A stretch of 61,087 bases of DNA from positions 1-61,087 of the forward strand of contig JAAOYF010000027.1 of the NCBI GenBank assembly GCA_018221205.1, in the 5' to 3' direction. The DNA comes from Candidatus Woesearchaeota archaeon (GTDB lineage: Archaea > Nanobdellota > Nanobdellia > Woesearchaeales > WJIZ01). Positions 7,343 through 56,348 of the stretch are shown here, piece after piece. Made by a program: the position numbers and the translations under genes. The notes below the pieces were generated by a model, which ran no database searches, was not told where the DNA came from, and worked only from the letters and a program-made list of their open reading frames with translations. Position 1 is the first letter of the stretch; the number at the start of each line of letters is the position of its first letter.

Positions 7343-9145
7343 ATGCTTATTAACCATTCTTTCCAAGATAAAAGTATCCAGAAGGATGTTCCAGATGCAG
7401 GATTTCTCTTGACGAACAAGAAAGGAGGCTTTGCCAATTTCGGTGTCAATACGAAGTATAGGGGAGTGTTCTTTCGACTCCGGGATGAAGTATACAAAAT
7501 CATCGATGACATACGGATCAAAGGGCAGATATCAGAGATCCATAACGGTTTTTGGCATGTCAGCAGGAAGAGAGGAGATAATACAGAAAAGTTTTTCATG
7601 CCTCATGGAATGGATTGCTTTGTCTATGAACTCGAGAATGAGTCGACGGTTGATGTTCTTTTCGATGTCAAGAAAGCATATGATTCACGGGTGTGGGGAA
7701 GAAATTATCGTGTCTGGCAGGAAGACGATGCACTCTTTGTCGAGTTCAAGAAGTTCACTGATAAGAGAGAAGATGATAGCGAAGGGGAGATGGAATTCCA
7801 ATTCACCATCGCTATCCTCGGAAAATTTTCTGATGTCGAGATCCTTGACAGATGGGAACATATGCTCTATACTGCTGATGCTCAGCGGCATAGTGGACCC
7901 TATGATCGGCACGTCTATAATGGTTTCAAAGCAAGAGCGAAGCAGCTGTTCTTCTCTTTCGGAGAGACAAAAGAGGATGCACTGAAAAATTGCCAGCATA
8001 TCAAAAAGAAGCTCTCACATTATCGATCGCTCCAGGAGAAGTATTCTGGCCTGATGTTCAAGAAGGCAAAAGATGATAAGACTCAATTAGCATTGAAGGC
8101 AGCTACTGAAGCATTGGACAGCCTGCTTGTCCATGATGATATCTATGCAGGACTGCCCTGGTTCTTTCAGTTCTGGGGACGAGACACCTTCATCAGCCTG
8201 AAAGCGCTTATGCTCGATAATGAATTCTCAATGGCTAAGAAAGTGTTGCTGAAATATCTTGAGCATATCGAGGAAGATGGCCTGGTGCCGAACAGGGTTC
8301 CACCGAGCGGGATACAATCAATAGATGCCTCAGGATGGTTCTTTACACGATGGCAGAACTTCTTCACCCTCTTAGGAGAGGAGAAGACGATCCAGCATTA
8401 TTTCAGCAAGGGAGAAGTAGAACTGGTCATCACCAGGCTCAAAAGCAGCATGAATCAGATCTTCAAGAATTATACAGTAGACAGCCTTGCCGTCAACAAT
8501 GCCCAAGAGACGTGGATGGATACAAACATCGGAGATGGACGAGCAGGAAAAAGGATAGAGATCCAAGCATTGCGATTCAGGTTGTACACTTTTCTCGCCC
8601 ACCATAGCGACAAAAATTTTTTCGATGATTTAGCAGCACGATTGAAAACAAAGATCAAGGAGGTGTTTTGGACAGGAACATACCTTAAGGATGGGGCAGA
8701 TGATCCTACCATCCGTCCGAACATCTTTATTGCTGCTTACCTTGCTCCTGAACTTCTTTCGAAAGAAGAATGGATAGCGTGTTTTGATCATATCCTGCCG
8801 AAGCTCTGGCTCGATTGGGGCGGCTTGTCGACGATAGATAAGGAGGATCCTCGTTTCAGAGAGAGGAGCACCGGGGAGAATCCTGAAAGCTATCACCATG
8901 GAGATTCTTGGTATTGGATCAACAATCTGGCAGCACTTGTTCTCACACGCCTGGATTATGTCCGCTATCAGCATACTATCGAGAAGATCGTCGAGGCGAG
9001 CTGTGAAGATATCTTATTCAAAGGATATGTAGGTTGTCATTCAGAGATAAGCTCTGCTGTTGAACAGAAAGCAGAAGGCTGCTTGAATCAGGCATGGAGC
9101 AACGCTTTCTTCATCGAACTCATCGAAGAATTAAATAAGCGGTGA
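7343..9145 (+). CDS. Glycogen debranching enzyme (amylo-alpha-1,6-glucosidase family)
   Basis: 600-aa ORF with GLPWFFQFWGRDTFISL, YHHGDSWYW and NQAWSNA motifs characteristic of the archaeal/bacterial GDE_C domain. Confidence 0.8.
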   Translation: MLINHSFQDKSIQKDVPDAGFLLTNKKGGFANFGVNTKYRGVFFRLRDEVYKIIDDIRIKGQISEIHNGFWHVSRKRGDNTEKFFMPHGMDCFVYELENESTVDVLFDVKKAYDSRVWGRNYRVWQEDDALFVEFKKFTDKREDDSEGEMEFQFTIAILGKFSDVEILDRWEHMLYTADAQRHSGPYDRHVYNGFKARAKQLFFSFGETKEDALKNCQHIKKKLSHYRSLQEKYSGLMFKKAKDDKTQLALKAATEALDSLLVHDDIYAGLPWFFQFWGRDTFISLKALMLDNEFSMAKKVLLKYLEHIEEDGLVPNRVPPSGIQSIDASGWFFTRWQNFFTLLGEEKTIQHYFSKGEVELVITRLKSSMNQIFKNYTVDSLAVNNAQETWMDTNIGDGRAGKRIEIQALRFRLYTFLAHHSDKNFFDDLAARLKTKIKEVFWTGTYLKDGADDPTIRPNIFIAAYLAPELLSKEEWIACFDHILPKLWLDWGGLSTIDKEDPRFRERSTGENPESYHHGDSWYWINNLAALVLTRLDYVRYQHTIEKIVEASCEDILFKGYVGCHSEISSAVEQKAEGCLNQAWSNAFFIELIEELNKR

Positions 9146-12024: not shown

Positions 12025-12582
12025 CTAATACCAGATGCCGACCACGACAGCATTCACTTCCCTTATCTTAATGGGGTCGATGTAATCAAGATTATCGCCT
12101 TTTGTCCGGAGATAAGGGCCTTTTTCATCTTTGCCTTTCTCAACTACCCTGTGGATGATGATACCATCAACAAAAGGAGAGTCATATGATATGATATCTC
12201 CCACTTCAACTTCATCAATATCATCGACTTTTCTCTCGATGGCATTCGCATCGCTTGTGATGATGGATTCCATAGATCTTGTATCAGTGAAGCGGGCGAT
12301 GATGAATTCTCCTCCAACATCCACCTCTAATGTGTTTCCTCTCACTTTGAAGTCGCTTTCTTTGATCCTGTCTTGAGGAGAAGGCTTTGATTCTGGAACT
12401 TGTCCCAGCTGCCTAAAAATAATCTCTGAGGGGTCTTCAATTATCCCTGGGGAAATGATCTCTGTATCTGCCGGAAGGTTGATGTTTTCATAGTCGGCTG
12501 AGATAGCTGAGCCTAGAAAGAATCCTCCTGTAAATAAAAGGCCTGCCACTAGGCAGGCCACCACAATACGTACCCCCAACAT
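12025..12582 (-). CDS. Signal peptidase I-like protein (archaeal S26B type), atypical
   Basis: 185-aa ORF with an N-terminal TM helix. C-terminal VGDIISY, IIHRVV and TKGDNLDYIDP boxes match archaeal Sec11-type peptidases. The Ser box is degenerate (TRSMESII) and follows an unusually long linker. Confidence 0.55.
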   Translation of the reverse strand: MLGVRIVVACLVAGLLFTGGFFLGSAISADYENINLPADTEIISPGIIEDPSEIIFRQLGQVPESKPSPQDRIKESDFKVRGNTLEVDVGGEFIIARFTDTRSMESIITSDANAIERKVDDIDEVEVGDIISYDSPFVDGIIIHRVVEKGKDEKGPYLRTKGDNLDYIDPIKIREVNAVVVGIWY

Positions 12583-12740
12583 AGATGAGAGAGGCGTTTT
12601 TCGCTTTAAAAGGTTTATGCTTTTTTGCTACTAAAAAATAGTAAAAACTGATTCTTATTGCCGTTACACAACCTTTAAATATATTCGAACTGGAGTTTGC
12701 ATTAAGCTAGATAGTGTAATATCATAAAAAAAGAGGATGT

Positions 12741-13850
12741 ATGTGGCCATTTAAGAAAAAACCCAAGGCACCTGTCCCTGGAGAAGAGCCAGGAGGTGCA
12801 GTTGACGAGGATAGCGAAGAAAAGGGATTCCAGATTCCAGAAGATGCTACGTTAGCCCAGAAGATCAATCTTATCGGTGTTGAATTGACCAAAGTCAATG
12901 CGACACTTGAAAGTTTTAAGGAAACGAGAAAGAGCACTACTGAACGATTTTCTTTGATGAATGAACAGGTCGGAGAGATCCGGGGCCAGCTGATGGATAC
13001 GAACAAGACCATCGGCCAAATAGAGGTAAAGGCCACTAAAGCGACTGATCTTGTTGAATCTGTACAGCCGGATAAGATGATGATATCTCTGCAGCGTACA
13101 GATGGCAAGATCGAGGGTGTCAGGGCACAGCTGGAAGCGAAAGATGCGATGATGAAGAATATCATGGAACAGCTGAAAGGCATGAGAAGCCAGATGTCCT
13201 TGTTCAAAGGTGTAGAGCAGATCATCAAGCTTAATGAAGATGTGAAAGATGAGATCATGAATGCCAAAAAGACCGTTGCTATGGTCGAGCGGCATGCTGA
13301 CAAAGTCGAGAATGTCTTTATTGAATCCCAGAAAAGCTTTGAGGAATTCAACAGATTTGCGAGTACACTTGAAAGTATCAGAGCAGACATCAAGGATCTG
13401 CAGACCAAAACAGAGAAGACTGAAGTGAAGACCGGCACGTTCTTGATCAAGAAGGAATTCGAGAAGAAGTTCGATAAGATGGAGCAGGATCATAAGCAGA
13501 CCATGGATCTTGTGAAGAAGCTGCAGAAGCTTGAGAAGAATCTTACGACTGAGTTTGAGGAGGCTAAAGGTGAGATCAAAGGGAAGTTTGATCATGCCAT
13601 CGAGAAAGCTGAGATGATGAGTAAAGCGTTTGAGACGATTCTTGTAGAAAATCCTATGTTCGCCAAAGGCCTTGACCTCGAGAAGTATCTTGAAAAGCAC
13701 CTTTCTGGAGAAGAAAAGCCTGCGCCTAAGAAAGAGGAGAAAGAAGAGAAAAAAGAGGGCGAAGAAGGAGAGGAGAAAGAAGAAGGCGAGGCTGAGGAAG
13801 GCGAAGAGAAAGAAGAAGATAAAGAAGATTCTGAAGAGAAGAAAGAGTGA
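12741..13850 (+). CDS. Coiled-coil protein with acidic E/K-rich C-terminal tail
   Basis: 369-aa ORF with long heptad-like helical segments and a terminal EEKEEKKEGEEGEEKEEGEAEEGEEKEEDKED tail. The antisense ORFs are shadows. Confidence 0.5.
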   Translation: MWPFKKKPKAPVPGEEPGGAVDEDSEEKGFQIPEDATLAQKINLIGVELTKVNATLESFKETRKSTTERFSLMNEQVGEIRGQLMDTNKTIGQIEVKATKATDLVESVQPDKMMISLQRTDGKIEGVRAQLEAKDAMMKNIMEQLKGMRSQMSLFKGVEQIIKLNEDVKDEIMNAKKTVAMVERHADKVENVFIESQKSFEEFNRFASTLESIRADIKDLQTKTEKTEVKTGTFLIKKEFEKKFDKMEQDHKQTMDLVKKLQKLEKNLTTEFEEAKGEIKGKFDHAIEKAEMMSKAFETILVENPMFAKGLDLEKYLEKHLSGEEKPAPKKEEKEEKKEGEEGEEKEEGEAEEGEEKEEDKEDSEEKKE

Positions 13851-14183: not shown

Positions 14184-14343
14184 GAGCAGACGGACGGTCA
14201 AAGGGAAGATACATCTGAAGCCTATTGAGTTCTCGGAAATCATTGAAGTTGAAGTGAAACGAGCTAATGAGAGCAGCGGAAGAGTGTATCTTCCTGCGAA
14301 ATATATCGGAAAGAAAGTCTTTGTGCTTGTCAACAAAAAATGA
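14182..14343 (+). CDS. 53-aa AbrB/DUF2080-like micro-protein (not in the ORF track)
   Basis: Hand translation gives MSRRTVKGKIHLKPIEFSEIIEVEVKRANESSGRVYLPAKYIGKKVFVLVNKK. The GRVYLPAKYIGKKVFVLV segment resembles the archaeal DUF2080/SpoVT-AbrB-like family. Its stop overlaps the next ATG (ATGA). Confidence 0.45.
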   Translation: MSRRTVKGKIHLKPIEFSEIIEVEVKRANESSGRVYLPAKYIGKKVFVLVNKK

Positions 14344-16613
14344 AGAGAATAGCGGTTTTCGGTGTGATGGCCTTGTTTTTTATAGTCTTCAGCTCAGCCT
14401 ACCTGTTCTGTGATCCTGAGATCGAGGACTGTCAAAATATCATTGATAGGGTGTGGGATAATTATGCTATCTTCAAGAAAGACAAGAACATCTTTGTGAA
14501 TTTCACCATTCCTGATAATGCTACTGGGAGTGATGTTCAACTGAAAGCATTCATCCCACCCTGGACGAGCTTCAATCTTAGCTGTTATGGCGGCGGGACA
14601 TGGCAGACTGTTGTCAGCACTGAAGAGGGTCTGGAGAGACTCTCTTTAGCGCCTATCTGTTCTCCCAAGCCGAACATATATCGTATCTGGAGAATCAATA
14701 ACCCTAATAAGATCCCTGTAACTTATTCCTGGCAGCTTTATGGAAGCAGTCTCAATGGGAGTGCTGTCGCCTATCCGGGTGAGTCTTATATCAATACGAC
14801 GGCAATCTCAGGATTGAACACTTTGCGTATCTTTGTCCGGAGCAAACTGCATGATATGAGGAGCAGCGACAGTTCGACGTGTTTCCAGGATTATAAGTCA
14901 ACATTCTTCCTCAATGAGAATTATACGGTACCTGCATCCTGTATGGCAGATGAGGAATTGCAATTACACTTTCGAGCCTTTGGAAAGGGTATCTTCACAC
15001 CGGTCTGGATATATGAATTGACTGTCTGGTGGACCAGCGTCAGCTATTCTGAGTTCACTGGTAAGGGCGAGACGACTGATCTGAGCAATCTGACGAGCGG
15101 GGATCAAGAGATGCCTGATCTGGTGCTTGATGACGGAATCGACGGCAAGATAACATTCAATATTCCTGTCGGCATCAACGCTTCCATCAATTTTGATGAG
15201 GCTGTCGAGATAAGCTATGCTTCCATCTCTGTTGATACTGAGAGATACCCGAGCCTGAATGCTCCAGCTAACTTGACTATGGAAAATCTGGCCATGATGA
15301 GCCCCCTCATCTTAAGAGATGGGGTAAGGTGCCTTACCTGTCAGATCCTCTCATGGGATACTGGAACAGGGAGGCTGCATTTCTCTGTCCCGGGATTCTC
15401 GACTTATACTGCTGTCGACGGCGCGCAATTGGAGATATGGGATGATACAAATGATGTCCAAGGAGAAAATACTGATCATTATGAGTTTGAGCTTACAGGA
15501 TTCTATGCCAATTTCAGCGATACAGCAGGATTCTCTGTCAATGGAACTGGGATTTTTTGCAATTACACCCAGAACAGCACCGGCTCCTGGAGCTTTCCTC
15601 TGGAGATGGATTTTGATAATATCAGCCACCTCTATGAAGTCAATGAGACCTTTCCCTTTCCAGGAGAATTTTTCTTCAATGTCTCCTGTATAACTAATAC
15701 CTTGTTCAATGTATCTGCAACTGATAATTTTGCCATCACTTCTTCTTTGACCATCAATGAGCACTATTCTGATCCAAGCCAGCCTATTGAAGAGGAGATC
15801 ACCCATATCCTAGCAAATGTCACTGCTAACTTGCCTATACGTTGGGTCAATTTTACCCTTACTGCACCTAATGGTACCATCATCATTGACAATGAAAATG
15901 CTACGTCTGTACTTTGGGATCTCTATAATTCATCAGATTTTTCAGCTGCCGGCTCTGGGAGATGGGTCTGGAATATCAGCGCTTATGATAATTATAGTAT
16001 AGCAAACACCTCAGGGAGCTTTTCTATACAAGCATGGCACATCATCGTCGGTAATCTTTCAGGATCGCTCATCTTGGGCAATTCATTAGGAAAGGCAATC
16101 ACTGAATGGACAGTGAGCAATTCTTCTGGAAGCAACATCTATGTTGCTGATTCTGACAGTACCCTCAATTTTGACAGTCTCATCGCGCTCGGGAGGAATC
16201 TTTCAAACAGTTCACGATTCGGAGATTTTGTTGAGCTAGATGACTTAATGGCCACAACAAATCTGACAGATTCGGTCAATCGGACGTTCACATCCGGAGG
16301 AAGTGTCAAAAAGGAGCATAATTTTACTGTGTTCGGGAGTACAATCTATTATACTCCGATTGTCAACAGCACCAATGTCACTACCTTCTTTACTGGAATC
16401 TTATGGGATTCGAGCGATGATGATAATGGGGGAACGGTAGGGGAATATGATAGTGCAGATCAGGAAGATGTCGTCTTCATCACAGAAGCAACTGAACCGA
16501 GCGATGGGAGCTATGGCTATTATGCATTTGAGATCAGTATACCTGCGAGATTACGGGCATATGTATCAGGTGGAGATCCAAATTCTGTTTCCCTCTATGG
16601 TGAAATAAGGTAG
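14340..16613 (+). CDS. Large secreted surface protein rich in N-glycosylation sequons
   Basis: 757-aa ORF with a signal peptide (MKRIAVFGVMALFFIVFSSAY) and dozens of N-x-S/T sequons (NFT, NAT, NLS, NGS, NTT ...). No TM anchor was seen. Confidence 0.65.
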   Translation: MKRIAVFGVMALFFIVFSSAYLFCDPEIEDCQNIIDRVWDNYAIFKKDKNIFVNFTIPDNATGSDVQLKAFIPPWTSFNLSCYGGGTWQTVVSTEEGLERLSLAPICSPKPNIYRIWRINNPNKIPVTYSWQLYGSSLNGSAVAYPGESYINTTAISGLNTLRIFVRSKLHDMRSSDSSTCFQDYKSTFFLNENYTVPASCMADEELQLHFRAFGKGIFTPVWIYELTVWWTSVSYSEFTGKGETTDLSNLTSGDQEMPDLVLDDGIDGKITFNIPVGINASINFDEAVEISYASISVDTERYPSLNAPANLTMENLAMMSPLILRDGVRCLTCQILSWDTGTGRLHFSVPGFSTYTAVDGAQLEIWDDTNDVQGENTDHYEFELTGFYANFSDTAGFSVNGTGIFCNYTQNSTGSWSFPLEMDFDNISHLYEVNETFPFPGEFFFNVSCITNTLFNVSATDNFAITSSLTINEHYSDPSQPIEEEITHILANVTANLPIRWVNFTLTAPNGTIIIDNENATSVLWDLYNSSDFSAAGSGRWVWNISAYDNYSIANTSGSFSIQAWHIIVGNLSGSLILGNSLGKAITEWTVSNSSGSNIYVADSDSTLNFDSLIALGRNLSNSSRFGDFVELDDLMATTNLTDSVNRTFTSGGSVKKEHNFTVFGSTIYYTPIVNSTNVTTFFTGILWDSSDDDNGGTVGEYDSADQEDVVFITEATEPSDGSYGYYAFEISIPARLRAYVSGGDPNSVSLYGEIR

Positions 16614-16701: not shown

Positions 16702-17373
16702 ATGCCGATTCTTAATCTAAAAAAGAAAGATGGGAAGGATTCTGTAGAGGAAGTTCCGGACGAGCTTCCCTCTTTGCCTGAAGAAAAGAAAGAAGAATCT
16801 CCTGCGGATGCTGAAGAATTGAAAAAAGAAGAAGCGCAGGCAGAAGAAGCTCCGGCTGAAACTGAAGAGAAAGCAGAAGAAGCACCTGCTGAGGAAACCC
16901 CATCAGAAGCTGAGCCAACAGAAGAATTGGCTCCTGATGAACTGCCACCTGTCCAGGAACCGGCAACGGAACAAGCAGAAGAACCCCAGCAGGAAGTGCA
17001 GCAACCAGAGGCGCAGCCTGCACAACCACAAGTCCTTGATGAGAGGCTTTATTTTTCTAAATTAATCGATAGGCTGAATAAAGGAGAAGCTATAGAGGAA
17101 ATCTCAAAAGAGATCCGTGATAAGGATATCATCTCTGCTCTGCGAGGAAATCTCAAGGAGAATCAGCGTCAGGACAAGAAAGGGGATTTTGAGAAGGATA
17201 TCAAGCAGATGATGGTGCAGCTTCAGGTGTTTGAGAGGGATTGGAGTACCCTTAAAGTCGAGCTTGAAGATAAAAAATCGAAATTTGAGGACACTGAAAA
17301 GAAAATCAGGGAGTTTACTGATCAGATCAAGGGTAGATTCTCAGATATTGACCACTTAAAACATCACCACTAA
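16702..17373 (+). CDS. Acidic E/P/A-rich plus coiled-coil protein
   Basis: 223-aa ORF. The N-terminal half is low-complexity (AEEAPAETEEKAEEAPAEETPSEAEPTEE) and the C-terminal half is helical. Confidence 0.5.
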   Translation: MPILNLKKKDGKDSVEEVPDELPSLPEEKKEESPADAEELKKEEAQAEEAPAETEEKAEEAPAEETPSEAEPTEELAPDELPPVQEPATEQAEEPQQEVQQPEAQPAQPQVLDERLYFSKLIDRLNKGEAIEEISKEIRDKDIISALRGNLKENQRQDKKGDFEKDIKQMMVQLQVFERDWSTLKVELEDKKSKFEDTEKKIREFTDQIKGRFSDIDHLKHHH

Positions 17374-17521
17374 TTCTTTTTTATAGGATTTATCGTCGAG
17401 AGATTTCTTACTACACTTTCAAAACGAAATGTTTATATATGAGTATATGAAAATGTATACTAAAATACATAAGTTACTGTCAGTATATCATTACTGTCAG
17501 TGTAGACTAGAGGTAGCGCGA

Positions 17522-17716
17522 ATGGATCAAAACCCCTTCATTGACTTTGTCGGCGAGGAAGTAAAGGCGCCGTATAAGGACGGCAATCAATTGAAGATTG
17601 CAAGGGGAACGCTAACGTCAGTTGATGGCGGTTTTGTCAAAGTTGTGGGCAAACTTGGGACAATAATCATCAACTCAAAGAACATTCAAAAAATGTCCAG
17701 AATCAAGAGACAATGA
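17522..17716 (+). CDS. Small beta-rich protein (possibly Sm-like fold)
   Basis: The track ORF 17429..17716 is trimmed to the internal Met (MDQNPFIDFVGEEV...GTLTSVDGGFVKVVGKLGTIIINSKNIQ), because the upstream part is AT-rich promoter-like sequence. The fold assignment is a guess. Confidence 0.3.
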   Translation: MDQNPFIDFVGEEVKAPYKDGNQLKIARGTLTSVDGGFVKVVGKLGTIIINSKNIQKMSRIKRQ

Positions 17717-17801: not shown

Positions 17802-18662
17802 ATGAAACTAAAAGTCATAGTACTATTGTTGGTCCTTGCAACGGCTGCACTCTATGTTGCTGCCCTTCCAGAAGGACCTTCGACACTGTCTGTTGCATCT
17901 TCATCCAGAAGGATCGTAACTGATGCGTCCAACGTCTCAGCATTGGCGGGGAACGTGTCGCAGCTCAATATCGCAGCTCAATCCACATCACAGTCCTGGC
18001 AAGGCTACTATGGTAATATTACCGGTACACTTGTCTTGGATACCTCTAGCGGATTCAGATTGTATGAGTGGAGTGTCGCTAATCCATCTGGAGAGGTCTA
18101 TGCTACAACTTCAATTACTGTGCCTCAATGGGGCTTCCAGGGTCAGGTAGGAAATATCAGCTGCTGGAATTATACAAGAGGACTTTCAACATCAGATTAT
18201 CCTCATTATGCTGAAGTAGAAGGATGGAACTCCTATGACGGTGAATCACAACAGATCGGCAGCTTCGGCATAGCTCAAAATGCCATCGATGCCATCAACA
18301 ACACCTTCAGAAGAACATCCAATCTGACATTTCCAACATTCTATGTCGGAAACCAACCTATCAATGGCACAGGCAATATTGATGAATGCCCAACATTGTC
18401 TCTCTTCAATGCTACCAACGTATCAACGTATGGAGCAGGAGAGCCTCTACCAGCCGGCCCACAAGAAGGCGGCAGGTACCAGGAAGTGATCCTTATCGAC
18501 CAGGAACCGCCGATGAAACTGCTGTGGACAGCAATCATCGATCTGGATCCGCAACCAGGATTCAATCGAGTCCCTTGGGATTTCGAGATGATTGTCCCAG
18601 AGGATGGACATGGCATAGACACCGCAACGACAGAGTACAACTTTTATGTGGAGTTGGAGTGA
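17802..18662 (+). CDS. Secreted W-x-G-Y-Y-G-N-I-T-G family protein, paralog 1
   Basis: 286-aa ORF with a GAGGTGA ribosome-binding site and a Sec-type signal peptide. Core motif SWQGYYGNITGTLVLDTSSGFRLYEWSVANPSGEVYATT. C-terminal motifs WDFEMIVPE and YNFYVELE followed by the stop. Confidence 0.75.
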   Translation: MKLKVIVLLLVLATAALYVAALPEGPSTLSVASSSRRIVTDASNVSALAGNVSQLNIAAQSTSQSWQGYYGNITGTLVLDTSSGFRLYEWSVANPSGEVYATTSITVPQWGFQGQVGNISCWNYTRGLSTSDYPHYAEVEGWNSYDGESQQIGSFGIAQNAIDAINNTFRRTSNLTFPTFYVGNQPINGTGNIDECPTLSLFNATNVSTYGAGEPLPAGPQEGGRYQEVILIDQEPPMKLLWTAIIDLDPQPGFNRVPWDFEMIVPEDGHGIDTATTEYNFYVELE

Positions 18663-18672
18663 GGTGATGACA

Positions 18673-19545
18673 ATGAAAACCAAACTATTCAACCGGACAA
18701 CATCATTGCTGGTAGTCATCTTGCTTGCACTGACAGCTTTAGTGTATGCTCAGAACCCTGTCGAACCATCAGACCCATCGGACTTCACCTACATCAGCAA
18801 TTCGACGACAAGGTATGCCAATGGAACAGTGTTCAACTATACGAGAGGCTTCATCCACACCATCAACATCTACGAGAAAGCACCAACCCTGAAATGGATT
18901 GGCTATGTCGGAAACATCACAGGCGACTTTGCCTTGCAGGATTCTGACGGCTATTCACTCTATCGATGGAACATCATTTCGACAACAGGAGAAGTATATG
19001 CTACGAAGGAAGGGCCTGGATCAGATTCAGGAGCAGGAAATAATGATGAATCTGATGAAGGAGGTATCCCAGAGTGGGAAAACATCATATGTGCAAATCT
19101 GGAAAATCTGACCCAAGAGGAGATCCTCTGGAACCATACGACAGCTTATGGAGCTATCGCCAATGAGGATGCATATCTTCAGACCTTCAAAGCGAATGGA
19201 GGAGCAGATTTCACTTTGCAAGCTCCATTCTATGTGGGAGCTGATAAGGAGATTGACGGAACCGGGTGCTATGGAGTTAACCTCTATACCAATGACACCA
19301 GGATGGCCAACAACTGGGAAGAAGTCGTACTGATGGATATGTCTTGGGAAGAGGAGAGAGCAGGAGCAGGAACGTTCCTTGATATCCAATGGGACATCAT
19401 CTATGCATCCCTGATTGAAAACAACACCTGGGGATACAGGAACGACTCTCAGACGTATGACTTCCAGATCATGCTGCCTCAGTCAGGTCTTGAAGGAAGC
19501 ACAGTCCCCAACAAAGCATTTTATTTTTATGTCGAGCTTATCTAA
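18673..19545 (+). CDS. Secreted W-x-G-Y-x-G-N-I-T-G family protein, paralog 2
   Basis: Start moved to the Met preceded by GAGGTGA (MKTKLFNRTTSLLVVILLALTALVYA). Core motif KWIGYVGNITGDFALQDSDGYSLYRWNIISTTGEVYATK. C-terminal motifs YDFQIMLPQ and FYFYVELI followed by the stop. Confidence 0.75.
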   Translation: MKTKLFNRTTSLLVVILLALTALVYAQNPVEPSDPSDFTYISNSTTRYANGTVFNYTRGFIHTINIYEKAPTLKWIGYVGNITGDFALQDSDGYSLYRWNIISTTGEVYATKEGPGSDSGAGNNDESDEGGIPEWENIICANLENLTQEEILWNHTTAYGAIANEDAYLQTFKANGGADFTLQAPFYVGADKEIDGTGCYGVNLYTNDTRMANNWEEVVLMDMSWEEERAGAGTFLDIQWDIIYASLIENNTWGYRNDSQTYDFQIMLPQSGLEGSTVPNKAFYFYVELI

Positions 19546-19620
19546 GCTCTTTCTTTCTTCTTTTTTTCTTTGACTAGTTCTCTCTCTATTCTCTTGAGCA
19601 GATAAATTTATATATACCTT

Positions 19621-19678
19621 TACTTACATTATGAGTATGATATTATCTTTTTTGTAATCATACTTACATAATGAGTAT
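19621..19678. repeat. 40-nt-period direct repeat duplicating the start-codon region of the tandem-HTH gene
   Basis: tacttacatTatgagtat (19621..19638) and tacttacatAatgagtat (19661..19678) match at 17 of 18 positions. The second copy contains the real ATG (19671). The first ATG (19630) opens only MSMILSFL followed by a stop. Confidence 0.7.
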
Positions 19679-20174
19679 AGAAGGGAGGAGAAAAGGGGGA
19701 GAACGTAAGAAAAAGGTAATCAGAGGATTCTTGGATACGCTGGAAAAGCAGCATATTTCCCGTAATGAACTTATACGATTTCTCCATGATGACAGAAAGA
19801 GCATCACTCAAGTCCCGGTCTCTTTATTCTCTTGTTCTTTGAGCCCTTTACAGGCTTTGGTGAAATACCTAAAGGAGCGTAGCTTGAGCTATCTTGAGAT
19901 CTCAAGGCTGTTAGGAAGGGATGAGCGGACAATATGGAACAGCTTCAGGCAAGCACAGTCGAAGCACCCTTCTGCTTTACATCCTGAGAAATCGAAATAC
20001 TCTATCTCTATTGTGCTATTCAGGGATAGATCATTGAGCATTCTTGAGCATCTTTGCGAGCATCTATATGAGTATCATGGACTGAGCTATCATGGCATTG
20101 CCCTTCTTCTGGGGAAGGATGACCGTACGATCTGGACAGTGTGCAAGAGAGCTGAGAGGAAAAGAAATGAATAG
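19671..20174 (+). CDS. Tandem helix-turn-helix DNA-binding protein (two sigma-70 region-4/LuxR-like repeats)
   Basis: 167-aa ORF with an internal duplication: LQALVKYLKERSLSYLEISRLLGRDERTIWNSFRQAQSK and SILEHLCEHLYEYHGLSYHGIALLLGKDDRTIWTVCKRAERK. It is a paralog of 55817..56278. Confidence 0.65.
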   Translation: MSIEGRRKGGERKKKVIRGFLDTLEKQHISRNELIRFLHDDRKSITQVPVSLFSCSLSPLQALVKYLKERSLSYLEISRLLGRDERTIWNSFRQAQSKHPSALHPEKSKYSISIVLFRDRSLSILEHLCEHLYEYHGLSYHGIALLLGKDDRTIWTVCKRAERKRNE

Positions 20175-20868
20175 AGCTAGAGTTATTTGGGTGGTGATTT
20201 TCTTAGTTACCCTGCTCAGCTTCAGCTATGCTATATCTCCAAATCCTCCAGACATCCTCTTCAATATCACCTCGAGCGGGCCTTCACAGACCATGGGGAG
20301 CATGCTCAACACCACTGGAGGAACGATCAGCACAGTGAATTTCTTCACGAAAACCCAGAATCCACGGTGGAAAGGCTTTGTCGGAAACATCACCGGCAAA
20401 TTTGCGCTGCAGGATGCGAACAATTTCAGCCTGTATGACTGGACCATCACTATAGTGCAGGGTGAAATCTATGCAACCAGAAATTCTGGTACGGTCGACT
20501 GGCCTAATATCGACTGCGCAACCTACCAGAACATCAGCTTTGAGCAGACTGATCTAGGATTCCTGAAAGGAGATGCCGATAGCATCAATAATACTTTCAA
20601 TGAGACTGCCCATGACCAGTTCTATGCCGGTGATACGCTCATCTCGGTCAACAGCTGCCCATCAACGAATCTTACTGTGAACACCACAGAGGTAGGACTG
20701 TTCCAGGAGCTCCTTCTTTTCGAGCAGAACATCATCTATACTGGATTGTTGGAAGATGCAGAGATAGGATTTAGCGGAGAACCCTATGATTATCAGCTCA
20801 TTGTCCCAGAGAATACAAACCAGAGCAAGGCAAGTGAACTTTATTATTTCTATATCGAGCTCATATAA
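20167..20868 (+). CDS. Secreted W-x-G-F-x-G-N-I-T-G family protein, paralog 3
   Basis: Start set at MNRARVIWVVIFLVTLLSFSYA, overlapping the HTH gene end by 8 nt. Core motif RWKGFVGNITGKFALQDANNFSLYDWTITIVQGEIYATR. C-terminal motifs YDYQLIVPE and YYFYIELI followed by the stop. Confidence 0.75.
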   Translation: MNRARVIWVVIFLVTLLSFSYAISPNPPDILFNITSSGPSQTMGSMLNTTGGTISTVNFFTKTQNPRWKGFVGNITGKFALQDANNFSLYDWTITIVQGEIYATRNSGTVDWPNIDCATYQNISFEQTDLGFLKGDADSINNTFNETAHDQFYAGDTLISVNSCPSTNLTVNTTEVGLFQELLLFEQNIIYTGLLEDAEIGFSGEPYDYQLIVPENTNQSKASELYYFYIELI

Positions 20869-20905
20869 AGAAACATTTAAATAAAGCATATCTCAATTTT
20901 AGGAC

Positions 20906-21199
20906 ATGGCAATGGAGTTTGTTGAGGGATTACTGAAGATCACCAATGTGGTGCTGTCTCTCGGAGCAGGCTATATCGCGCTCAAGCTCTTTGTGTTCAG
21001 TAAGGAGAAGAGACTGATGGCCTGGCAGCCGCTTATCTTTGCTTTAGTCTTCTTTGTGGTGCAAGAAATCCTCGGAGCGTTACGTGCATTCAACATCTAC
21101 AGCTCTCCTTTTCTGACGCATGTCGTCCCAAGCGTCATCTTAGCATTCCTCATCTATGCATTAGCATTGCAGATCCATATCCAATCAGTCGAAAAATGA
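20906..21199 (+). CDS. Small 3-TM membrane protein (paralog a)
   Basis: 97-aa ORF with three hydrophobic helices. It shares its helix pattern with the next ORF and overlaps it (ATGA). Confidence 0.5.
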   Translation: MAMEFVEGLLKITNVVLSLGAGYIALKLFVFSKEKRLMAWQPLIFALVFFVVQEILGALRAFNIYSSPFLTHVVPSVILAFLIYALALQIHIQSVEK

Positions 21200-21501
21200 T
21201 ACCAGTAGACCAAGCATTAGGATTAGTGGCGCCTTACTATAATCTTACTCTCGTCGTCATAGTCATTGCCCTATTCGTCGCCCTGTTCCGCTATAAAGAG
21301 ACGAAGACGTTTATGCTGCCCTGGAGATTATTGTTCAACGCAGTCCTTATCTATGTATTTGAACAAGTGCTGGCAGTCCTTGACATCATGGGAATCATCC
21401 CTGTTCCGAGAATCTTTTTCGGCATCTTTGAGTTTGCGATCATCACAATTTTCATCTATCTGCTCCTAGTACAACAACAATATATCGCGAAAAATGCATA
21501 A
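21196..21501 (+). CDS. Small 3-TM membrane protein (paralog b)
   Basis: 101-aa ORF with the same architecture as 20906..21199 (K..K..M..W..L.F...V...V.E.L). It overlaps the pilin-like ORF. Confidence 0.5.
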   Translation: MIPVDQALGLVAPYYNLTLVVIVIALFVALFRYKETKTFMLPWRLLFNAVLIYVFEQVLAVLDIMGIIPVPRIFFGIFEFAIITIFIYLLLVQQQYIAKNA

Positions 21502-21742
21502 GAAAGCACTATCACCACTGGTTGCGACCGTTCTTTTAGTAGTGTTCGCTCTCATCGTGGGCACAGCGACGATGAGCTGGGCGAACAACAAGGCGACTAT
21601 CGGCGAGGATGATAATCCTGTCTCGATCGTCATCGATTTCAAGAAAGTCGATACCCCACTGAAGAGACTGCAGATCGACTATATCACTGATGAGATCACC
21701 TTAGAAGAATATCTTGAGAAAGAACAAGAACTTTTAGGATGA
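21494..21742 (+). CDS. Archaeal type IV pilin-like protein (class III signal peptide)
   Basis: 82-aa ORF starting MHKKALSPLVATVLLVVFALIVG. This matches the K-[GA]-[LI]-S-P-[VI/LV]-[IA]-T-V-L-L prepilin-peptidase substrate motif of archaeal pilins and flagellin-like proteins. Confidence 0.7.
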   Translation: MHKKALSPLVATVLLVVFALIVGTATMSWANNKATIGEDDNPVSIVIDFKKVDTPLKRLQIDYITDEITLEEYLEKEQELLG

Positions 21743-43328: not shown

Positions 43329-44501
43329 TATTTTCAAGTGCATCAGCCGTACAGAATCAGAAATTATTCAGTCTTTGATATCGGCAATAACAATCAGTAT
43401 TGGTTTAATGATAAAAATAAACAGATCATGGAGAAGGTCGCGAAGAAATGCTATATTCCTACCAATAAAGTCTTCCTGAATCATCTGCGGAATAATCCAG
43501 AGTTCAAGATCAGCTATTCTTTTTCAGGGGTTGTCCTTGACCAATTTGAGGAGTATGCTCCTGATGTCCTTCGGAGCTTCCAAGATCTTGTCGATACTGG
43601 CCAGGTCGAGGTGCTTGATGAAACTTATTACCACAGCCTGGCTTATCTCTATTCAAAAGATGAGTTCAAAGCACAGGTAAAACTTCATAATAAGAAGGTG
43701 AAGGACCTCTTCGGCTACAGCCCGTCTGTCTTCAGAAACACAGAACTGGTCTATAACAATGAACTTGCTAAATTTGTTGAAGATATGGGCTATAAAGGAA
43801 TCCTGGCAGAAGGTGCAGACCACATCCTCGGATGGAGAAGCCCTAATTTCCTCTATCGACCTGTGACGTGCAATAATATCAAGCTGCTGCTGAAGAATTA
43901 TAAGCTCTCAGATGACATCGCATTCAGATTCTCGAACAAAGGATGGAATGAGCATCCATTGACTGCACCAAAATTTGCAAAATGGGTGAACCAGACAAAC
44001 GGGAACGGGAACGTCGTCAACCTGTTCATGGATTACGAGACTTTCGGCGAGCACCAATGGGAAGACACCGGCATATTCAAGTTTCTAGAAGCGATGCCCC
44101 ATGAACTGCTCAAGCACCCAGACAATAAGTTCATCACGCCGAGCGAAGCTGTCAAGAGCTTCGAGCCTGTAAGTGACCTAGACATCCATAACATCATCTC
44201 ATGGGCAGACATCGAACGAGATCTGAGCGCATGGCTCGGCAACAGCATGCAGCAATCAGCAGCAACAAAGATCTACCAAATCGAGAAAAGAGTAAAGGAA
44301 CTGAACGATCCGAAGCTATTGGAAGACTGGCGAAAATTGCAGACGAGCGACCATTTCTATTATATGTGCACGAAGTGGTTTGCAGACGGTGATGTGCATC
44401 GGTATTTCAATCCCTATGAAAGCCCTTATGACGGCTTCATCGCATTCATGAACATCCTGAATGATATGCACAAAAGAATAGCACCACCAATTCCAGCATA
44501 A
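43311..44501 (+). CDS. Glycoside hydrolase family 57 protein
   Basis: 396-aa ORF. The N-terminal FYFQVHQPYRIR and MDYETFGEHQWE segments are typical of GH57 alpha-glucan-active enzymes. Confidence 0.75.
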   Translation: MVSVCFYFQVHQPYRIRNYSVFDIGNNNQYWFNDKNKQIMEKVAKKCYIPTNKVFLNHLRNNPEFKISYSFSGVVLDQFEEYAPDVLRSFQDLVDTGQVEVLDETYYHSLAYLYSKDEFKAQVKLHNKKVKDLFGYSPSVFRNTELVYNNELAKFVEDMGYKGILAEGADHILGWRSPNFLYRPVTCNNIKLLLKNYKLSDDIAFRFSNKGWNEHPLTAPKFAKWVNQTNGNGNVVNLFMDYETFGEHQWEDTGIFKFLEAMPHELLKHPDNKFITPSEAVKSFEPVSDLDIHNIISWADIERDLSAWLGNSMQQSAATKIYQIEKRVKELNDPKLLEDWRKLQTSDHFYYMCTKWFADGDVHRYFNPYESPYDGFIAFMNILNDMHKRIAPPIPA

Positions 44502-44812
44502 TGGCACCACGACTGACTCCGGAATATGCAGAGCACCTTTTAGCGACAGCACCATCTGACAAGAATTTCCATATCTTCAACGGACCTATGGTACACTGCA
44601 TCGAGGAACTGCATCAAGCATTGCGGCAGATATCTGAAGAGCAGTTCAAGCACCATAAGAACAACAGCAAGAATGATTTCTATAACTGGATATTATTGGT
44701 TGTGGGAGATATTAAATTAGCGAATGACATTGCCCGTGCCAAGACGAAACAGACCATGCTCAAAAGAATAGATGAGAGGATATCCTATCTGAAAAGCAAG
44801 GTGAATAGATGA
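44501..44812 (+). CDS. Small conserved protein, N-D-F-x-N-W motif family (paralog a)
   Basis: 103-aa ORF: FHIFNGPMVHCIEELHQALRQISEEQFKHHKNNSKNDFYNWI. It parallels the next ORF. Confidence 0.5.
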   Translation: MAPRLTPEYAEHLLATAPSDKNFHIFNGPMVHCIEELHQALRQISEEQFKHHKNNSKNDFYNWILLVVGDIKLANDIARAKTKQTMLKRIDERISYLKSKVNR

Positions 44813-45282
44813 AACATTATACCTTCAACCGGGATGCAGGAGAGAACAGTTTTTGGTTAGCCAGTGGAGAGGAGCTTTCTACCATCAAGGACCTGTATCA
44901 TGAACTCGCACATATGAGTGATGATACTTTCAATACTCATGTCAACGCAGGCAAGAATGACTTTGCTAACTGGGTAGACCATGTCTTTGAAGAGCATACT
45001 CTATCATCTAAACTCGTGCAGGCATCGACTAGAGATGAGATGAAGACCGCATTAGGAAGCTGGATGCATGATATCATCCATGAATCGAGCAATATCCGCC
45101 ATGCCTATAAGAAGACCATGCATCATGCGAAAACCATGGGAGAGAAAGTTAAGGAGCACTCACAGAAGCATGTCTCCTGGATCTTTTCGAAGGATCATCC
45201 ATTGAGAAAAGGCATGCTTGATTTTTTACTGGGATTTTTCATAGGGGCTTTATCAGTCTTCTTTATCTTCAATGCTCTCTAA
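44809..45282 (+). CDS. N-D-F-x-N-W motif family protein (paralog b) with C-terminal TM helix
   Basis: 157-aa ORF: FWLASGEELSTIKDLYHELAHMSDDTFNTHVNAGKNDFANWV. C-terminal hydrophobic helix LLGFFIGALSVFFIF. Confidence 0.5.
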   Translation: MKHYTFNRDAGENSFWLASGEELSTIKDLYHELAHMSDDTFNTHVNAGKNDFANWVDHVFEEHTLSSKLVQASTRDEMKTALGSWMHDIIHESSNIRHAYKKTMHHAKTMGEKVKEHSQKHVSWIFSKDHPLRKGMLDFLLGFFIGALSVFFIFNAL

Positions 45283-46014: not shown

Positions 46015-46440
46015 TTATTCTAGGCGTTCCCTCAATCCTTTACAGGCAGAAAAAACCGTCTGCTTCAATTCCTTGGGAAGAAGCCTATAGCGCTGCATGA
46101 TCTCATGATAGTTGTCCTTAGCAGGCTTCTTCTCATTGTTCCTCAGATGCTCAAAACATTCTTTGATCAGGACATTTATACGGTCAAAATCAGATCCTTT
46201 AGAGAGGTCATCTATCTCATTCTTGATATCCTTCAGGAGATGTTTTGCACGCTTGATGTCATGCTCTTCCTGGGTGAGTGATGCAGTCTTTATCTTTGAA
46301 GGTATATCCAATACCATCAGCTCTGCTATGGCAGTATCTTTCCCTTCTTTTCTCAGCACGGACACAGACTGCTGCAATTCCTGAAATTTATCCTTAAGTT
46401 CGTCGATCTTCTCTTCTATCTCCTCTTTTTTTATCCTCAT
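46015..46440 (-). CDS. Helical/coiled-coil hypothetical protein
   Basis: 141-aa ORF. Its start overlaps the stop of the 1287-aa ORF. Confidence 0.45.
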   Translation of the reverse strand: MRIKKEEIEEKIDELKDKFQELQQSVSVLRKEGKDTAIAELMVLDIPSKIKTASLTQEEHDIKRAKHLLKDIKNEIDDLSKGSDFDRINVLIKECFEHLRNNEKKPAKDNYHEIMQRYRLLPKELKQTVFSACKGLRERLE

Positions 46441-49400
46441 TTCTTAACCTCCTTCTTCTCCCCTTTCGGAGGGTTTTTCGTAAGCTCAATAGCCCCTTCT
46501 AATTTTTTCACTACCTTATCCTTCTTCTCAACCTGGTCTTTTGGCAATGCAATATTCTTGACCTCCATCATCAGATCATTGATGGTTAGCCAGTCTTTAT
46601 AGGGGAGCAAGTTCTCAATCTGCTTGCCCAACTGAGTTATGCTCTCGAGATTCGCCTCGATCTGTTCCTTACTTAGCTTCGTTTCCTCTTTCTTCTCTTC
46701 TTTTCTTGATTCGACCTCTTTCTTCTTCACTTCTTTTTCCTTATCAGCTGCCTTTTCGTGCTCTTTTCGTGCTGCTTCCAATTCTTTTTCCATAGCCTCG
46801 ACATCGACGAGCTTTCTCTGCAGTTTCTGAGGCTTCTTACCTATCTTGTTCCAGAGTTTCTCAACCCTCGGCGTCAATCCATCCAGGTAGATCTGGACCA
46901 TGTTGAAATTGCCTGATTTGATCTTGTCCTGGGCAAGCTTCAGCTCTAATTTCAGGTCGAACACATCCTGGCTTTCCTTCTCGAGCTGCTCGAACTGGAA
47001 TGCGAGATCGTCGACAATATCATTGAATTTATTGTATTTCTCAAGCTCCTCATCACTCAATCTGACGACAGAATGGAGGATAGGACGGAATGTCACGTAG
47101 TAAGGCCTTCCACGATTCCATGCAGAGCTCTGCACCATGCCGCTGCCAACAGGCGCTTTGATCAATGCCTGGATGAACTCTTCACCATAGTTGGTCTTGA
47201 TCCTGTTCAAATCGCCCTCATCTCGAGTCTTCATCTGGACGTTGGTGTTGATGTTGGCTTTGATCTGGCCGACGAAATCCTGCAATACCTGTGAGATCAG
47301 CAAAATACCGATACCCCACTTCCTGAACTCTCGGCACCCACGTTCAATCTGGATAAAGCCCTGTCCAGAGCCGCCAAATTTCGGCAAGATCCTATGGATC
47401 TCATCGTAGACGAGCATATATCTCAATCCCCGATACTCCTGCAGATTAGAGTGGAAGATCTCTCTGATGGTATTCGCGACAAAAATATCATAGTCCTTTG
47501 GATCTAATGTGGAGGTGGTGAAGACCTGTATCTCTCCAGGACGCCAATTCTTGTAGATGGCGACAATCTCTCTACTATCCTTGATTGCACGAATATTACC
47601 TGGGAAGGCTCTCGCGTCTTTAGGTTTCATACCCATCGCAGGATAGAAGCTGAGCATCTTCTTATCAGTGCATTTTCTCAGCATGCCTGACCATTGGGCA
47701 GTCGGATCGAATACGACGATAGCTGCACCCTTTATCAATACCTCTTCTATTATCACCTGTGCTGCAATAGATTTTCCTCCTCCTGTCGATCCTGCGACGA
47801 TGGAATGGACGGTTAAGATGTCCATATCAAAATATGCGTTCTTGGTCGTCTCTGCTATCTTGCCAACAAACAAGCTGCGGGGCCCTTCTTTCGGCAACTC
47901 TTTATAATCGACTTTCGCATGGAACCTCTTCCGTTTCTCCATCTCCCTCTTTATGATGAGGTAGGTGATGAATCCCAGCAGGAGAAGGGCCACGATGAGT
48001 GCAAGGACCCATACAGGCAGCCATCCAAAGATCCGATATTGATGATAAGGATAGACGACACTAAACAAGGTATCTGTCGAAGAGGAGATGCCTAGATATT
48101 CTGCTTCAACTCCGAGGAGATAATCTCCAGTCTCGAAGTCTTTCGGTATCTTATACGAGCGTATGAGGGAAGCGAAGGTCTCGATGTTCAGACCATGCTC
48201 TCCTATCGGGGTCTTATTGGTCTTGTTGAGATCAGAGATGAAGAAACTTAGGTTGACATTGTATTTCCTTCCGATCAGCAGGTTGATCAGATCCAATTCA
48301 TATTTGAAATCATAGCCGATGAATGCATTTTTCTTCAACGGCCGGAGATCCATCAATAATGTCCTTACCGGAATGTCGATGTCTTCTGTTATGATGAGAT
48401 AGACAGGTATGTTGTAATCATAATCTCCCCTTATGCGGATATTGCCTAAGTATTTTCCTTCGTCTTGGTTCCCTAGCAGGCGCACGTTCACTTCTTTAGA
48501 AGAATTTGCAGGAATGAGCAGCTCTGTGTCGCTCAATTGAATGGAAGGAGCGACATTTCCTTCTACACCGAGCCTTAATCTTATCGGTACTTTCCTGAAA
48601 TTGAAGATGGTGAACTGCTCGTCCACGTAGTTTCCTCTCTGTATCTTCTTGATGATCTCGTTGATGGAGATGAATACTTCTAGAGGAGAGGGTTTTTGCA
48701 CATCTATGGGGAAGGCGGATTCGTCTGTCCTTGTCCTTGTCCTTGTCTGAGTCTCTTCCTCTGGCTTGGGCTGAACTTGCACCTGCTCAGGTATCTCTCC
48801 AAGCGGAATAGTGATGTTCACTGTACCGCCCTCTACTAATTCAGTTATCCCAGTCAGGTTCCCAATGTAAGGGAAATATCCATCCTTAATGCCGATAATC
48901 AAATAGTAGGCTGAAGCAGGAAGGTTCAGCGTAAAGCCACCATTAGTGTCTGAGTAGGTAAGGTAGCCTCCGATAGCCACTGTAGCGTTTGATATCCTTG
49001 TCAGAGTATCCTCATCGAAGACATATCCATTCACTGTCCCATTCAGATCTGCTTCGATGGGAATCGGGATTAATGATAGGTTCAGCTCTTTTTCTTCATA
49101 GATATCGATGCTGATATCTTTTGAGTAGGGGAAATATCCTGTCTTCACTGCGACAGCGGTCCTGTTGCCGCTCTGCATAGGGAAACTGAATCTTCCACTT
49201 GCATTCGTGATACCGACGCCGCCACCAGCTGAGACTGTCGCATTCGGGATGGCGCAGGCTGCGATGGAGAAGTTTGCGATGCAGGCGCTTGTGTTCTGGA
49301 AGACATATCCTCTTAATATTGCATTGAAATCAAACTTCCCGAGGAAATCAGGGACCATGGAGATATTGTATTGGATTATCTCTCCGACTTCGGCCTCTAC

Positions 49401-56278: not shown

Positions 56279-56348
56279 AGTGTGTTATTTGAATACTAAT
56301 TAAGAGAATTGGTATATAAAATTAACTGTTAGAGAATACTAGGTAAGA

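Follow-up and report, generated by a model that had tools for sequence, protein, structure and literature searches.

A lineage-specific family of secreted archaeal proteins linked to a tandem helix-turn-helix gene: a possible assembly or docking module of the Woesearchaeal envelope

The 61,087-nucleotide contig JAAOYF010000027.1 of a Candidatus Woesearchaeota archaeon (GenBank assembly GCA_018221205.1), hereafter the window, carries a cluster of genes for secreted proteins that share the motif W-x-G-Y-x-G-N-I-T-G and that we refer to by the working name FAM. The window encodes aRF1, deoxyhypusine synthase, prefoldin and L37ae and comes from a DPANN archaeon; the named relatives of the proteins studied here are, without exception, from Woesearchaeota, Pacearchaeota or Nanoarchaeota. 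An initial annotation made from the DNA alone had described three adjacent open reading frames of this family, and all three prove to be real: paralog 1 (17802–18662, 286 aa, with 10 N-x-S/T sequons and 2 Cys), paralog 2 (18673–19545, 290 aa) and paralog 3 (20167–20868, 233 aa), all on the forward strand. The start corrections that give these lengths also hold, given the Shine-Dalgarno-like ribosome-binding site GGAGTGAGGTGAT ahead of the ATG at 18673, the sequence ATGAATAG at 20167–20174, in which the ATG of paralog 3 overlaps the stop of the preceding gene by 8 nt, and a hidden Markov model (HMM) alignment that begins at the corrected N-termini; ahead of the ATG of paralog 1 lies GAGGTGA. 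The three-way alignment contains 48 invariant columns, including W-G-GNITG, LY-W and GE-YAT, and the four common features reported earlier are all present, namely Sec-type N-termini, the GNITG core block, the motif [WY]D[FY][EQ]..[VL]P and the C-terminus FY[VI]EL.

The family splits into two deep clades, paralog 1 belonging to clade 1 and paralogs 2 and 3 to clade 2. Paralogs 1 and 2 form a pair, after which a hairpin and a long T-rich tract (19534–19575, +) separate them from the next unit and likely mark the end of a c8-FAM1-FAM2 transcription unit, c8 being a small gene described below. The next unit consists of a gene for a protein of 167 aa with two helix-turn-helix (HTH) repeats, which we call HTH2x (19671–20174, +), and of paralog 3. 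Reading the sequence upstream of it, we find a TATA-like box, AAATTTATATATA (19604–19616, +), followed by a first putative operator, TACTTACATTATGAGTA (19621–19637, +), a near-palindrome of the form TACTTA-N5-TAAGTA, and by a second copy, TACTTACATAATGAGTA (19661–19677, +), which covers the HTH2x start codon. The family profile also uncovered genes missed by the initial annotation. On the reverse strand, a fourth full paralog of 252 aa, a clade 1 member (55062–55820; HMM E 2.7e-75), follows its own tandem-HTH gene of 153 aa (55817–56278) with a 4-nt overlap, and divergent FAM-like domains are present in two large window proteins of 757 and 1287 aa.

An indexed search with the family profile returned 688 proteins, every one labelled "hypothetical protein", and an exhaustive search over 1.84 billion cluster representatives (clusters at 50% identity) retrieved 1507, 1075 and 519 of them at E ≤ 1e-3, 1e-10 and 1e-30, respectively. 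With hundreds of profile matches in both searches, the similarity is far beyond chance. Scanning one genome per GTDB species for the pattern gave 520 confirmed stretches, the best 80 of which are titled Woesearchaeota, Pacearchaeota, Nanoarchaeota or Nanoarchaeia; the HMM search for the taxonomic range likewise confines FAM, among named relatives, to Woesearchaeota, Pacearchaeota and Nanoarchaeota. Some FAM-bearing metagenome-assembled genomes bear the title "uncultured Methanosarcinales", which the flanking gene families, the same as in the window and in Woesearchaeota loci, suggest to be a mislabel. Profiles built from 3 and from 121 sequences matched no named family in Pfam, NCBIfam, PHROGs, PADLOC or the PDB sequences, in agreement with the earlier statement that the proteins have no assignable domain.

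Residues W68, G73, G77, L81, W92, G99, C117, T143, C164, F228 and E231 (numbering of paralog 3) are invariant across 121 members. An N-terminal hydrophobic segment of Sec type is found in 202 of 209 members, and 152 of the 209 have exactly two cysteines, both of whose columns are invariant. Free-standing members measure about 235–300 aa, and their chain ends exactly one residue past E-[LIVMF] in 165 of 180 cases. Sequons occur at 3.70 per 100 aa, as compared to 1.55 expected from composition and 0.35 in a control set of ten cytoplasmic window proteins; because of this density FAM is very probably N-glycosylated, as the initial annotation had supposed. Taken together, these traits firmly support the view of FAM as an exported, glycosylated and disulfide-bonded extracellular domain.

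Structure prediction followed by a fold search, the check proposed in the initial annotation, yielded a confident AlphaFold2 model of paralog 3 (pLDDT, the predicted local distance difference test, 93.1; predicted TM-score 0.86; input, a 121-sequence alignment). The model consists of a signal helix, an arm of about 45 residues and a mostly-beta domain of about 165–170 residues, made up of some 11 strands and a pair of short helices. Foldseek returned no PDB match at E ≤ 1e-3, the best being Ena3A (E 0.53, probability 0.09, TM-score 0.16–0.27), and nothing significant in BFVD (best E 0.31); donor-strand pilins and the Ena, TasA-like and cannula subunits of the PDB gave no fold match of significance. 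The predicted fold would thus have no solved relative detectable by Foldseek in PDB and BFVD, a program that can miss distant beta-sandwich similarities. Since the model is confident and matches no enzyme family or fold, FAM is probably structural rather than enzymatic.

The genomic context was surveyed in 81 loci (the window, two long contigs and 78 distinct genome loci), which hold 231 full FAM members, about 2.9 per locus. Adjacent pairs are ordered clade 1 then clade 2. The clade 1 gene is the first of the pair and lies downstream of a gene for an ArsR-like HTH protein, c8, an acidic coiled-coil protein or a giant surface protein, while the clade 2 gene is either the second of the pair, often followed by a gene termed c2_324, or the one coupled to the tandem-HTH gene. 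Association with the latter is nearly invariant. The initial annotation had set, beforehand, conservation of the HTH/FAM adjacency outside this genome as the point on which its proposal should stand or fall, and FAM follows 63 of the 64 HTH2x genes with enough downstream sequence in these loci. In 60 of the 63 the HTH stop codon and the closest FAM ATG overlap, by 4 nt in 29 and by 8 nt in 11, and this stop/start overlap suggests translational coupling.

The two sigma-70-region-4-like HTH stretches ascribed earlier to the HTH partner are found by Pfam at about aa 62–95 and 132–160, with scores slightly above the cut-offs (HTH_38, 27.4 bits vs. 27; Sigma70_r4_2, 27.0 vs. 25.7; HTH_23, 25.3 vs. 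24.6), together with an NCBIfam match to an IS630 N-terminus. The two HTH2x proteins of the window are 35% identical, and an indexed search found only 13 relatives. Like sigma-70 region 4, LuxR and HTH_38 proteins and the bipartite domains of IS630/Tc1 transposases, HTH2x has two HTH units per chain, and a bipartite near-palindromic site is plausible; unlike them, it lacks sigma regions 2/3, a receiver or a transposase domain, is archaeal and is confined to a single gene context upstream of FAM.

Many divergent loci share a conserved 17-bp near-palindrome, TACTTAcataaTAAGTA, ahead of their HTH2x genes, usually as two copies 40–52 bp apart. With up to 3 mismatches the window contains exactly two matches in 61 kb vs. 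0.15 expected, and the stretches ahead of called HTH2x genes, 8.4 kb in all, hold 50 of the 77 matches found on both strands of 1.9 Mb of locus sequence; the others are mostly located before HTH2x genes missed by the gene caller. We infer that these near-palindromes are bound by HTH2x, which would so regulate the bicistronic operon that it forms with FAM. In the window, the promoter of the second HTH2x gene (56285–56341, −) has a different direct repeat, TAGTATTC, which occurs twice and flanks TTTTATATA around the TATA box, and this difference suggests paralog-specific operators.

FAM is also found at the end of much larger proteins. About 20 of the best 150 representatives are proteins of 350–1780 aa with FAM at their extreme C-terminus. 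In the window, the 757-aa protein (14340–16613, +) is a secreted, sequon-rich surface protein (34 sequons) with a Nup98-type (S59-like), an immunoglobulin-like (Ig-like) and a divergent FAM-like C-terminal domain, the last of which aligns to the FAM profile with an hhalign probability of 93.7% (E 2e-7). An indexed search found only 4 relatives of this protein; its last ~200 residues match the C-termini of giant proteins whose genes, in about 20 loci, precede FAM pairs, and over aa 238–469 it is similar to the fused representative P0180 (BLASTP E 3e-25).

Seven of ten FAM fusions examined match PF04096 (Nup98-96 autopeptidase S59), P0137 above the cut-off of 28.4 bits, with a score of 31, and the six others just short of it. 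At the end of this match, 7 of 19 long FAM-fused representatives (P0137, P0173, P0180, P0209, P0223, P0243 and P0249) have the sequence HFS[NAS]YS, while the 757-aa protein (aa 352–354) and three of the same 19 have GFS instead of HFS. When a profile of the domain (A4; 17 sequences, the window protein included) was compared with the PDB sequences, 22 of the 23 matches were Nup98, Nup116 or Nup145 (best E 8e-7), and the stretch "FsVehFsnYs" of the profile aligned on "FKVSHF|SKYG" of Nup98, placing HFS on the HF|S cleavage site. An Nup98/Nup145N-type (S59) domain thus appears to lie at aa ~238–360 of an extracellular protein, with self-cleavage as a prediction only. In a model of residues 225–757 the S59-like part reaches a pLDDT of 70–87 and the following Ig-like domain is also confident. 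Structural confirmation of the Nup98-like domain was sought with Foldseek and did not succeed: the top 50 matches of the 757-aa protein are Ig-like and none is Nup98, so the Nup98-like fold is not confirmed. The domain therefore resembles Nup98, Nup145N and Nup116 (ZU5 superfamily) in its profile and, in the fused homologues, in the alignment of H-F-S on HF|S, and differs from the nucleoporins in its extracellular archaeal context, in the G-F-S of the window copy and in the fold search. From bacteria, autopeptidases of the ZU5 superfamily, to which Nup96/98 belongs, have been described in toxins and surface proteins (PMC3482391).

From N to C terminus, the HFS-type proteins comprise a hydrophobic or transmembrane (TM) segment, a Gly-rich linker, the Nup98-like HFS domain, an Ig-like domain and FAM. 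Given the N-terminal TM segment and the linker, FAM would be located at the distal tip of a membrane tether, as in the HerA fusion described below, a layout with what looks like the geometry of a surface-layer (S-layer) anchor. Many Woesearchaeal surface proteins have, 5–10 residues past the N-terminal hydrophobic segment, a motif [IFL]-[TS]-G-[FY]; carriers are P0137, P0173, P0180, P0223 and P0224, the proteins encoded at 7470–8252 of locus L026 and at 7354–8049 of L037, and, in the window, the one at 58252–59556 (aa ~70). It may be an unrecognized processing or sorting signal.

The second large fusion, a membrane protein of 1287 aa (46437–50300, −), has its FAM-like part at the other end. 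An N-terminal FAM-like ectodomain (hhalign 97.1%, E 5.7e-11 over 173 columns) is followed by three CarboxypepD_reg domains, a TM helix, a cytoplasmic HerA/DUF87 ATPase and a long coiled-coil tail. The ATPase matches PF01935 (DUF87; 42.2 bits vs. 23.2) and, in PADLOC, HerA (1.7e-13) and mad8 (1.9e-14), and contains the motif GSTGGGKS. This protein may be a translocation ATPase docked to a FAM structure. Homologues are encoded near FAM genes in L048, L056 and L066. The earlier remark that no assembly ATPase is encoded nearby is correct for type IV pilus ATPases and is incomplete with regard to this HerA-type fusion.

Several further genes accompany FAM. Immediately upstream of paralog 1 lies c8 (17522–17716, +), the gene of a small cytoplasmic protein of 64 aa, preceded by GAGGTAG and conserved directly upstream of clade 1 FAM genes, with phmmer matches in at least 10 distinct loci (E 1e-21 to 1e-29). 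Ahead of the c8 start codon, and after a TATA-like element, we noticed a direct repeat, TTACTGTCAGT[AG]TA (17474–17487 and 17491–17504, 17 nt apart), whose conservation in L001 is not obvious. The acidic coiled-coil gene (16702–17373, +), a conserved upstream neighbor of FAM pairs, occurs in 22 of the 81 loci, where it opens the series acidic–c8–FAM–FAM. The whole order in the window is accordingly 757-aa protein, acidic protein, c8, FAM clade 1, FAM clade 2, HTH2x, FAM clade 2. A C-terminal segment, H.N..KNDF..W, is common to the acidic coiled-coil proteins upstream of FAM pairs in some genomes (the window protein, and those at 3381–4130 of L003 and 12299–13234, −, of L014) and recurs in two small window proteins (44501–44812 and 44809–45282) near glycogen-metabolism genes. 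The c2_324 genes, third after FAM pairs in 41 of the 81 loci (L003, L014, L018, L019 and L025 among them), encode an unrelated secreted family of ~324 aa, rich in Cys, extremely rich in sequons and without a Pfam match; a distant kinship with FAM was considered and rejected (hhalign probability only 24%), and a search for the family in the window gave no match. In 22 loci FAM pairs directly follow the gene of another dedicated type of regulator, a winged-helix protein of ~200 aa that resembles ArsR/HTH_5 and has an uncharacterized C-terminal half (for instance at 9131–9757 of L003 and 6530–7081 of L022); this regulator is absent from the window. Finally, c5, a protein of 575 aa (56446–58173, −) found in 21 loci and often adjoining HTH2x-FAM units, begins with a signal peptide and a large ectodomain almost devoid of sequons, after which a C-terminal TM helix leads to a zinc ribbon in the cytoplasm.

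Downstream of paralog 3, two 3-TM proteins (20906–21199 and 21196–21501) and an 82-aa pilin-like protein with a class III signal (21494–21742) are encoded on the forward strand. The pilin assignment is supported by TIGR02537 (archaellin/type IV pilin N-terminus; 22.4 bits vs. a cut-off of 20). The FAM paralogs match neither TIGR02537 nor any pilin, and their signals are of Sec type with an A-x-A-like end. That the 3-TM proteins are paralogs of each other stands only in a weak sense: direct BLASTP gives E 6.9, each matches the orthologues of the other at ~3e-5, and they would be at best distantly related. The initial annotation had included this trio in the FAM cluster, which the survey does not bear out. 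In only 2 of the 80 other loci, the closest relative L001 (8779–9661) and L015 (4490–5390, −), do the three genes accompany FAM, and a TATA-like element of their own, TTTAAATA (20877–20884), lies ~25 nt before the first ATG. For these two reasons we treat the trio as probably a separate neighboring unit, and on the count of loci the three proteins are ruled out as FAM partners. As such, it is a conserved three-gene module with overlapping starts that moves independently of FAM genes, and no pilus ATPase or prepilin peptidase is encoded near it.

How can these observations be brought together? We tentatively favor, while allowing that it may well prove wrong, the reading that in Woesearchaeales, Pacearchaeales and related DPANN archaea FAM is a lineage-specific extracellular module by which part of the envelope is assembled or other proteins dock onto it, with one subunit gene being autoregulated. 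The domain architecture, with FAM always at the extreme terminus of large surface proteins, favors a self-associating or docking module. FAM proteins would associate non-covalently into an outer surface structure, most likely an S-layer-like canopy, possibly a fibre, in which clade 1 and clade 2 subunits from adjacent genes would act as heteromeric partners. At the end of a longer chain, FAM would serve as a plug that inserts other proteins into this structure, i.e., giant adhesin-like proteins, membrane tethers that contain the putative self-cleaving domain of Nup98 type, and the HerA-type ATPase of the membrane. As a dedicated transcription factor, HTH2x would bind the two TACTTA-N5-TAAGTA sites at its own promoter and start codon, and would in this way control both its own expression and that of the one FAM subunit translationally coupled to it. 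Three things lead us, by inference, to rank a canopy above a fibre: the expected placement of FAM on a tether, the missing resemblance to fibre subunits already known, and the lack of a predicted free donor strand.

Comparison with two-component archaeal S-layers (the SlaA canopy and SlaB stalk of Sulfolobales) and with the SLH/CWB2 families of Firmicutes is instructive. SlaA and SlaB are likewise exported by Sec and heavily N-glycosylated, as predicted for FAM, and at the level of sequence FAM does look like a secreted, N-glycosylated envelope protein. In S-layers and SLH/CWB2 families, as proposed for FAM, a shared module brings many different passenger domains into a single surface structure; stalk versions tethered to the membrane and several paralogs per genome exist in both. 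Unlike S-layers, FAM has no sequence or fold relationship to these proteins (SlaB appears only as a weak Ig-domain match to the 757-aa model), its subunits are much smaller (~25 kDa), its lattice is hypothetical, and translationally coupled dedicated transcription factors are unusual for S-layer genes.

Several points weigh against an assembly or docking module. Self-association, whether as a lattice or a filament, is a proposal drawn from the architecture, and operator binding by HTH2x is one drawn from co-occurrence. Neither known S-layer families (Pfam, NCBIfam, PDB) nor any known pilin show similarity to FAM, and we found no proteomic or imaging data on these organisms in the literature. 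The FAM-like part of the 757-aa protein was modeled poorly (pLDDT <50). In the model of paralog 3, the N-terminal arm has no regular secondary structure and packs on its own domain with a pLDDT of 83–92; being ordered there and having no strand, it gives no sign of strand exchange in the prediction. Finally, the highly conserved surface-type motifs (W, Y, GN[IV][TS]G and several Asp/Glu) could equally mark a ligand-binding site.

The favored module could also be part of something larger, although we hold this to be doubtful: FAM as the building block of a novel Woesearchaeales-type assembly with a docking code of its own, that is, the missing S-layer or sheath or a host-contact structure. Adhesins, self-cutting Nup98-type tethers and a HerA-type translocation ATPase would then plug in through their FAM domain, and the whole would be an apparatus for cell–cell contact, possibly for DNA or protein transfer between symbiont and host.

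Among the rival explanations, two fare best. According to the first, which we regard as unlikely while deserving of attention, FAM proteins are the subunits of a surface fibre or pilus other than type IV, in line with the possibly polymerising surface subunit of the initial annotation. Its major and minor subunits would be the free-standing paralogs, its two-domain tip adhesins the large proteins that end in FAM, and its base the membrane-tethered and HerA-fused versions. FimH and PapG are such two-domain tip adhesins in chaperone–usher pili, where adhesin-like proteins also carry the subunit domain at the C-terminus. Small secreted glycoproteins in several conserved paralog classes, a FAM domain at the extreme C-terminus of adhesin-like proteins, a conserved terminal aromatic strand and even the non-significant top rank of a fibre subunit, Ena3A, in the PDB search speak for this explanation. 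Sulfolobus threads, Pyrobaculum bundling pili (TasA-like), the Pyrodictium cannulae CanA/B/C and Bacillus Ena are likewise made of small secreted glycoprotein paralogs that are mostly beta, as predicted for FAM. Yet none of these fibres, whose structures the PDB copy searched should contain, gave a significant fold match; the N-terminal arm, predicted to lie ordered against its own domain and still present in the fusions, is unlike a free donor strand; and the 81 loci contain no conserved chaperone, usher or sortase-like gene or other conserved assembly gene near FAM.

The second is a serious rival, even if it too has only a minor share of our confidence. Here FAM is a carbohydrate- or ligand-binding module, akin to a lectin or a carbohydrate-binding module (CBM), that attaches to a glycan of the cell's own envelope or of the host, with the free-standing copies acting as soluble or loosely bound adhesins in episymbiosis. 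The terminal position on multidomain surface proteins is typical of anchoring and binding modules, paralog expansion is usual for host-recognition proteins, and the invariant aromatic and acidic residues W68, W92, Y102, E100, D138, E181, D186 and D208 suit a binding site; weak jelly-roll, CBM and lectin entries are present in the noise of the fold searches. None of these entries, however, is a significant match to a CBM or lectin fold or family, and unanchored secreted binders would diffuse away. Moreover, the stable pairing of clade 1 with clade 2 across genomes resembles fixed stoichiometric partners and not diversifying adhesins.

Much less probable is a role as secreted hydrolases, toxins or other enzymes or effectors, which the HTH protein would induce when needed and which would act on host or environmental polymers. 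Conserved carboxylates, secretion and a dedicated regulator would fit, as would the occurrence of self-cleaving domains of ZU5/Nup98 type in toxins and surface enzymes of bacteria (PMC3482391); nonetheless, FAM resembles no catalytic family or fold, is not paired with an immunity-like gene and has several paralogs per locus in a core chromosomal context. Synteny of the cluster with the prefoldin, aRF1 and L37ae genes, combined with a normal GC content and the absence of any composition anomaly in the window, indicates that the cluster is chromosomal and not mobile. A virus or mobile-element remnant, with FAM as a jelly-roll capsid-like protein, was suggested by polyomavirus VP1 and bromovirus coat proteins among the non-significant fold matches and is effectively refuted, with a negligible probability left to it, since those matches have E ~1 and TM-scores <0.2, FAM proteins have Sec signal peptides and match no PHROG and no BFVD entry significantly, and the cluster keeps its place next to housekeeping genes, with no integrase found in the window and no match in a tRNA scan of it, tRNA genes being a usual integration site. 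An Rfam scan of the window likewise gave no match.

We found no paper describing the FAM family. Lineage-specific archaeal surface glycoprotein families are, as a kind, already known; what is new would be this family, with an apparently unmatched fold, a docking-domain architecture and a dedicated, coupled autoregulator whose putative operator is defined. A close parallel in the literature is a DPANN-specific secreted family, cls.004306/NEQ255, encoded next to S-layer-like proteins (Makarova et al., PMC6393860). Compared by description only, cls.004306 is like FAM DPANN-restricted, secreted, uncharacterized and placed in a neighborhood rich in surface proteins. The titles of the FAM matches do not include Nanoarchaeum equitans, the source of NEQ255, and the two may or may not be the same family.

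Among uncultured archaea, Woesearchaeota and Pacearchaeota rank with the most widespread, and to our knowledge their cell envelope and host-contact machinery are essentially uncharacterized. With several copies per locus, more than 1,500 clusters and fixed gene partners, FAM is one of the most expanded secreted families of these lineages, and it offers concrete targets for cryo-electron tomography, envelope proteomics and labelling with antibodies or by methods of the fluorescence in situ hybridization type. HTH2x, its pair of 17-bp putative operators and the coupled FAM gene make up a simple and testable regulatory unit. Lastly, a Nup98-type domain in extracellular archaeal proteins, if the profile similarity is a true guide, would bear on the origin of the nucleoporin domain.

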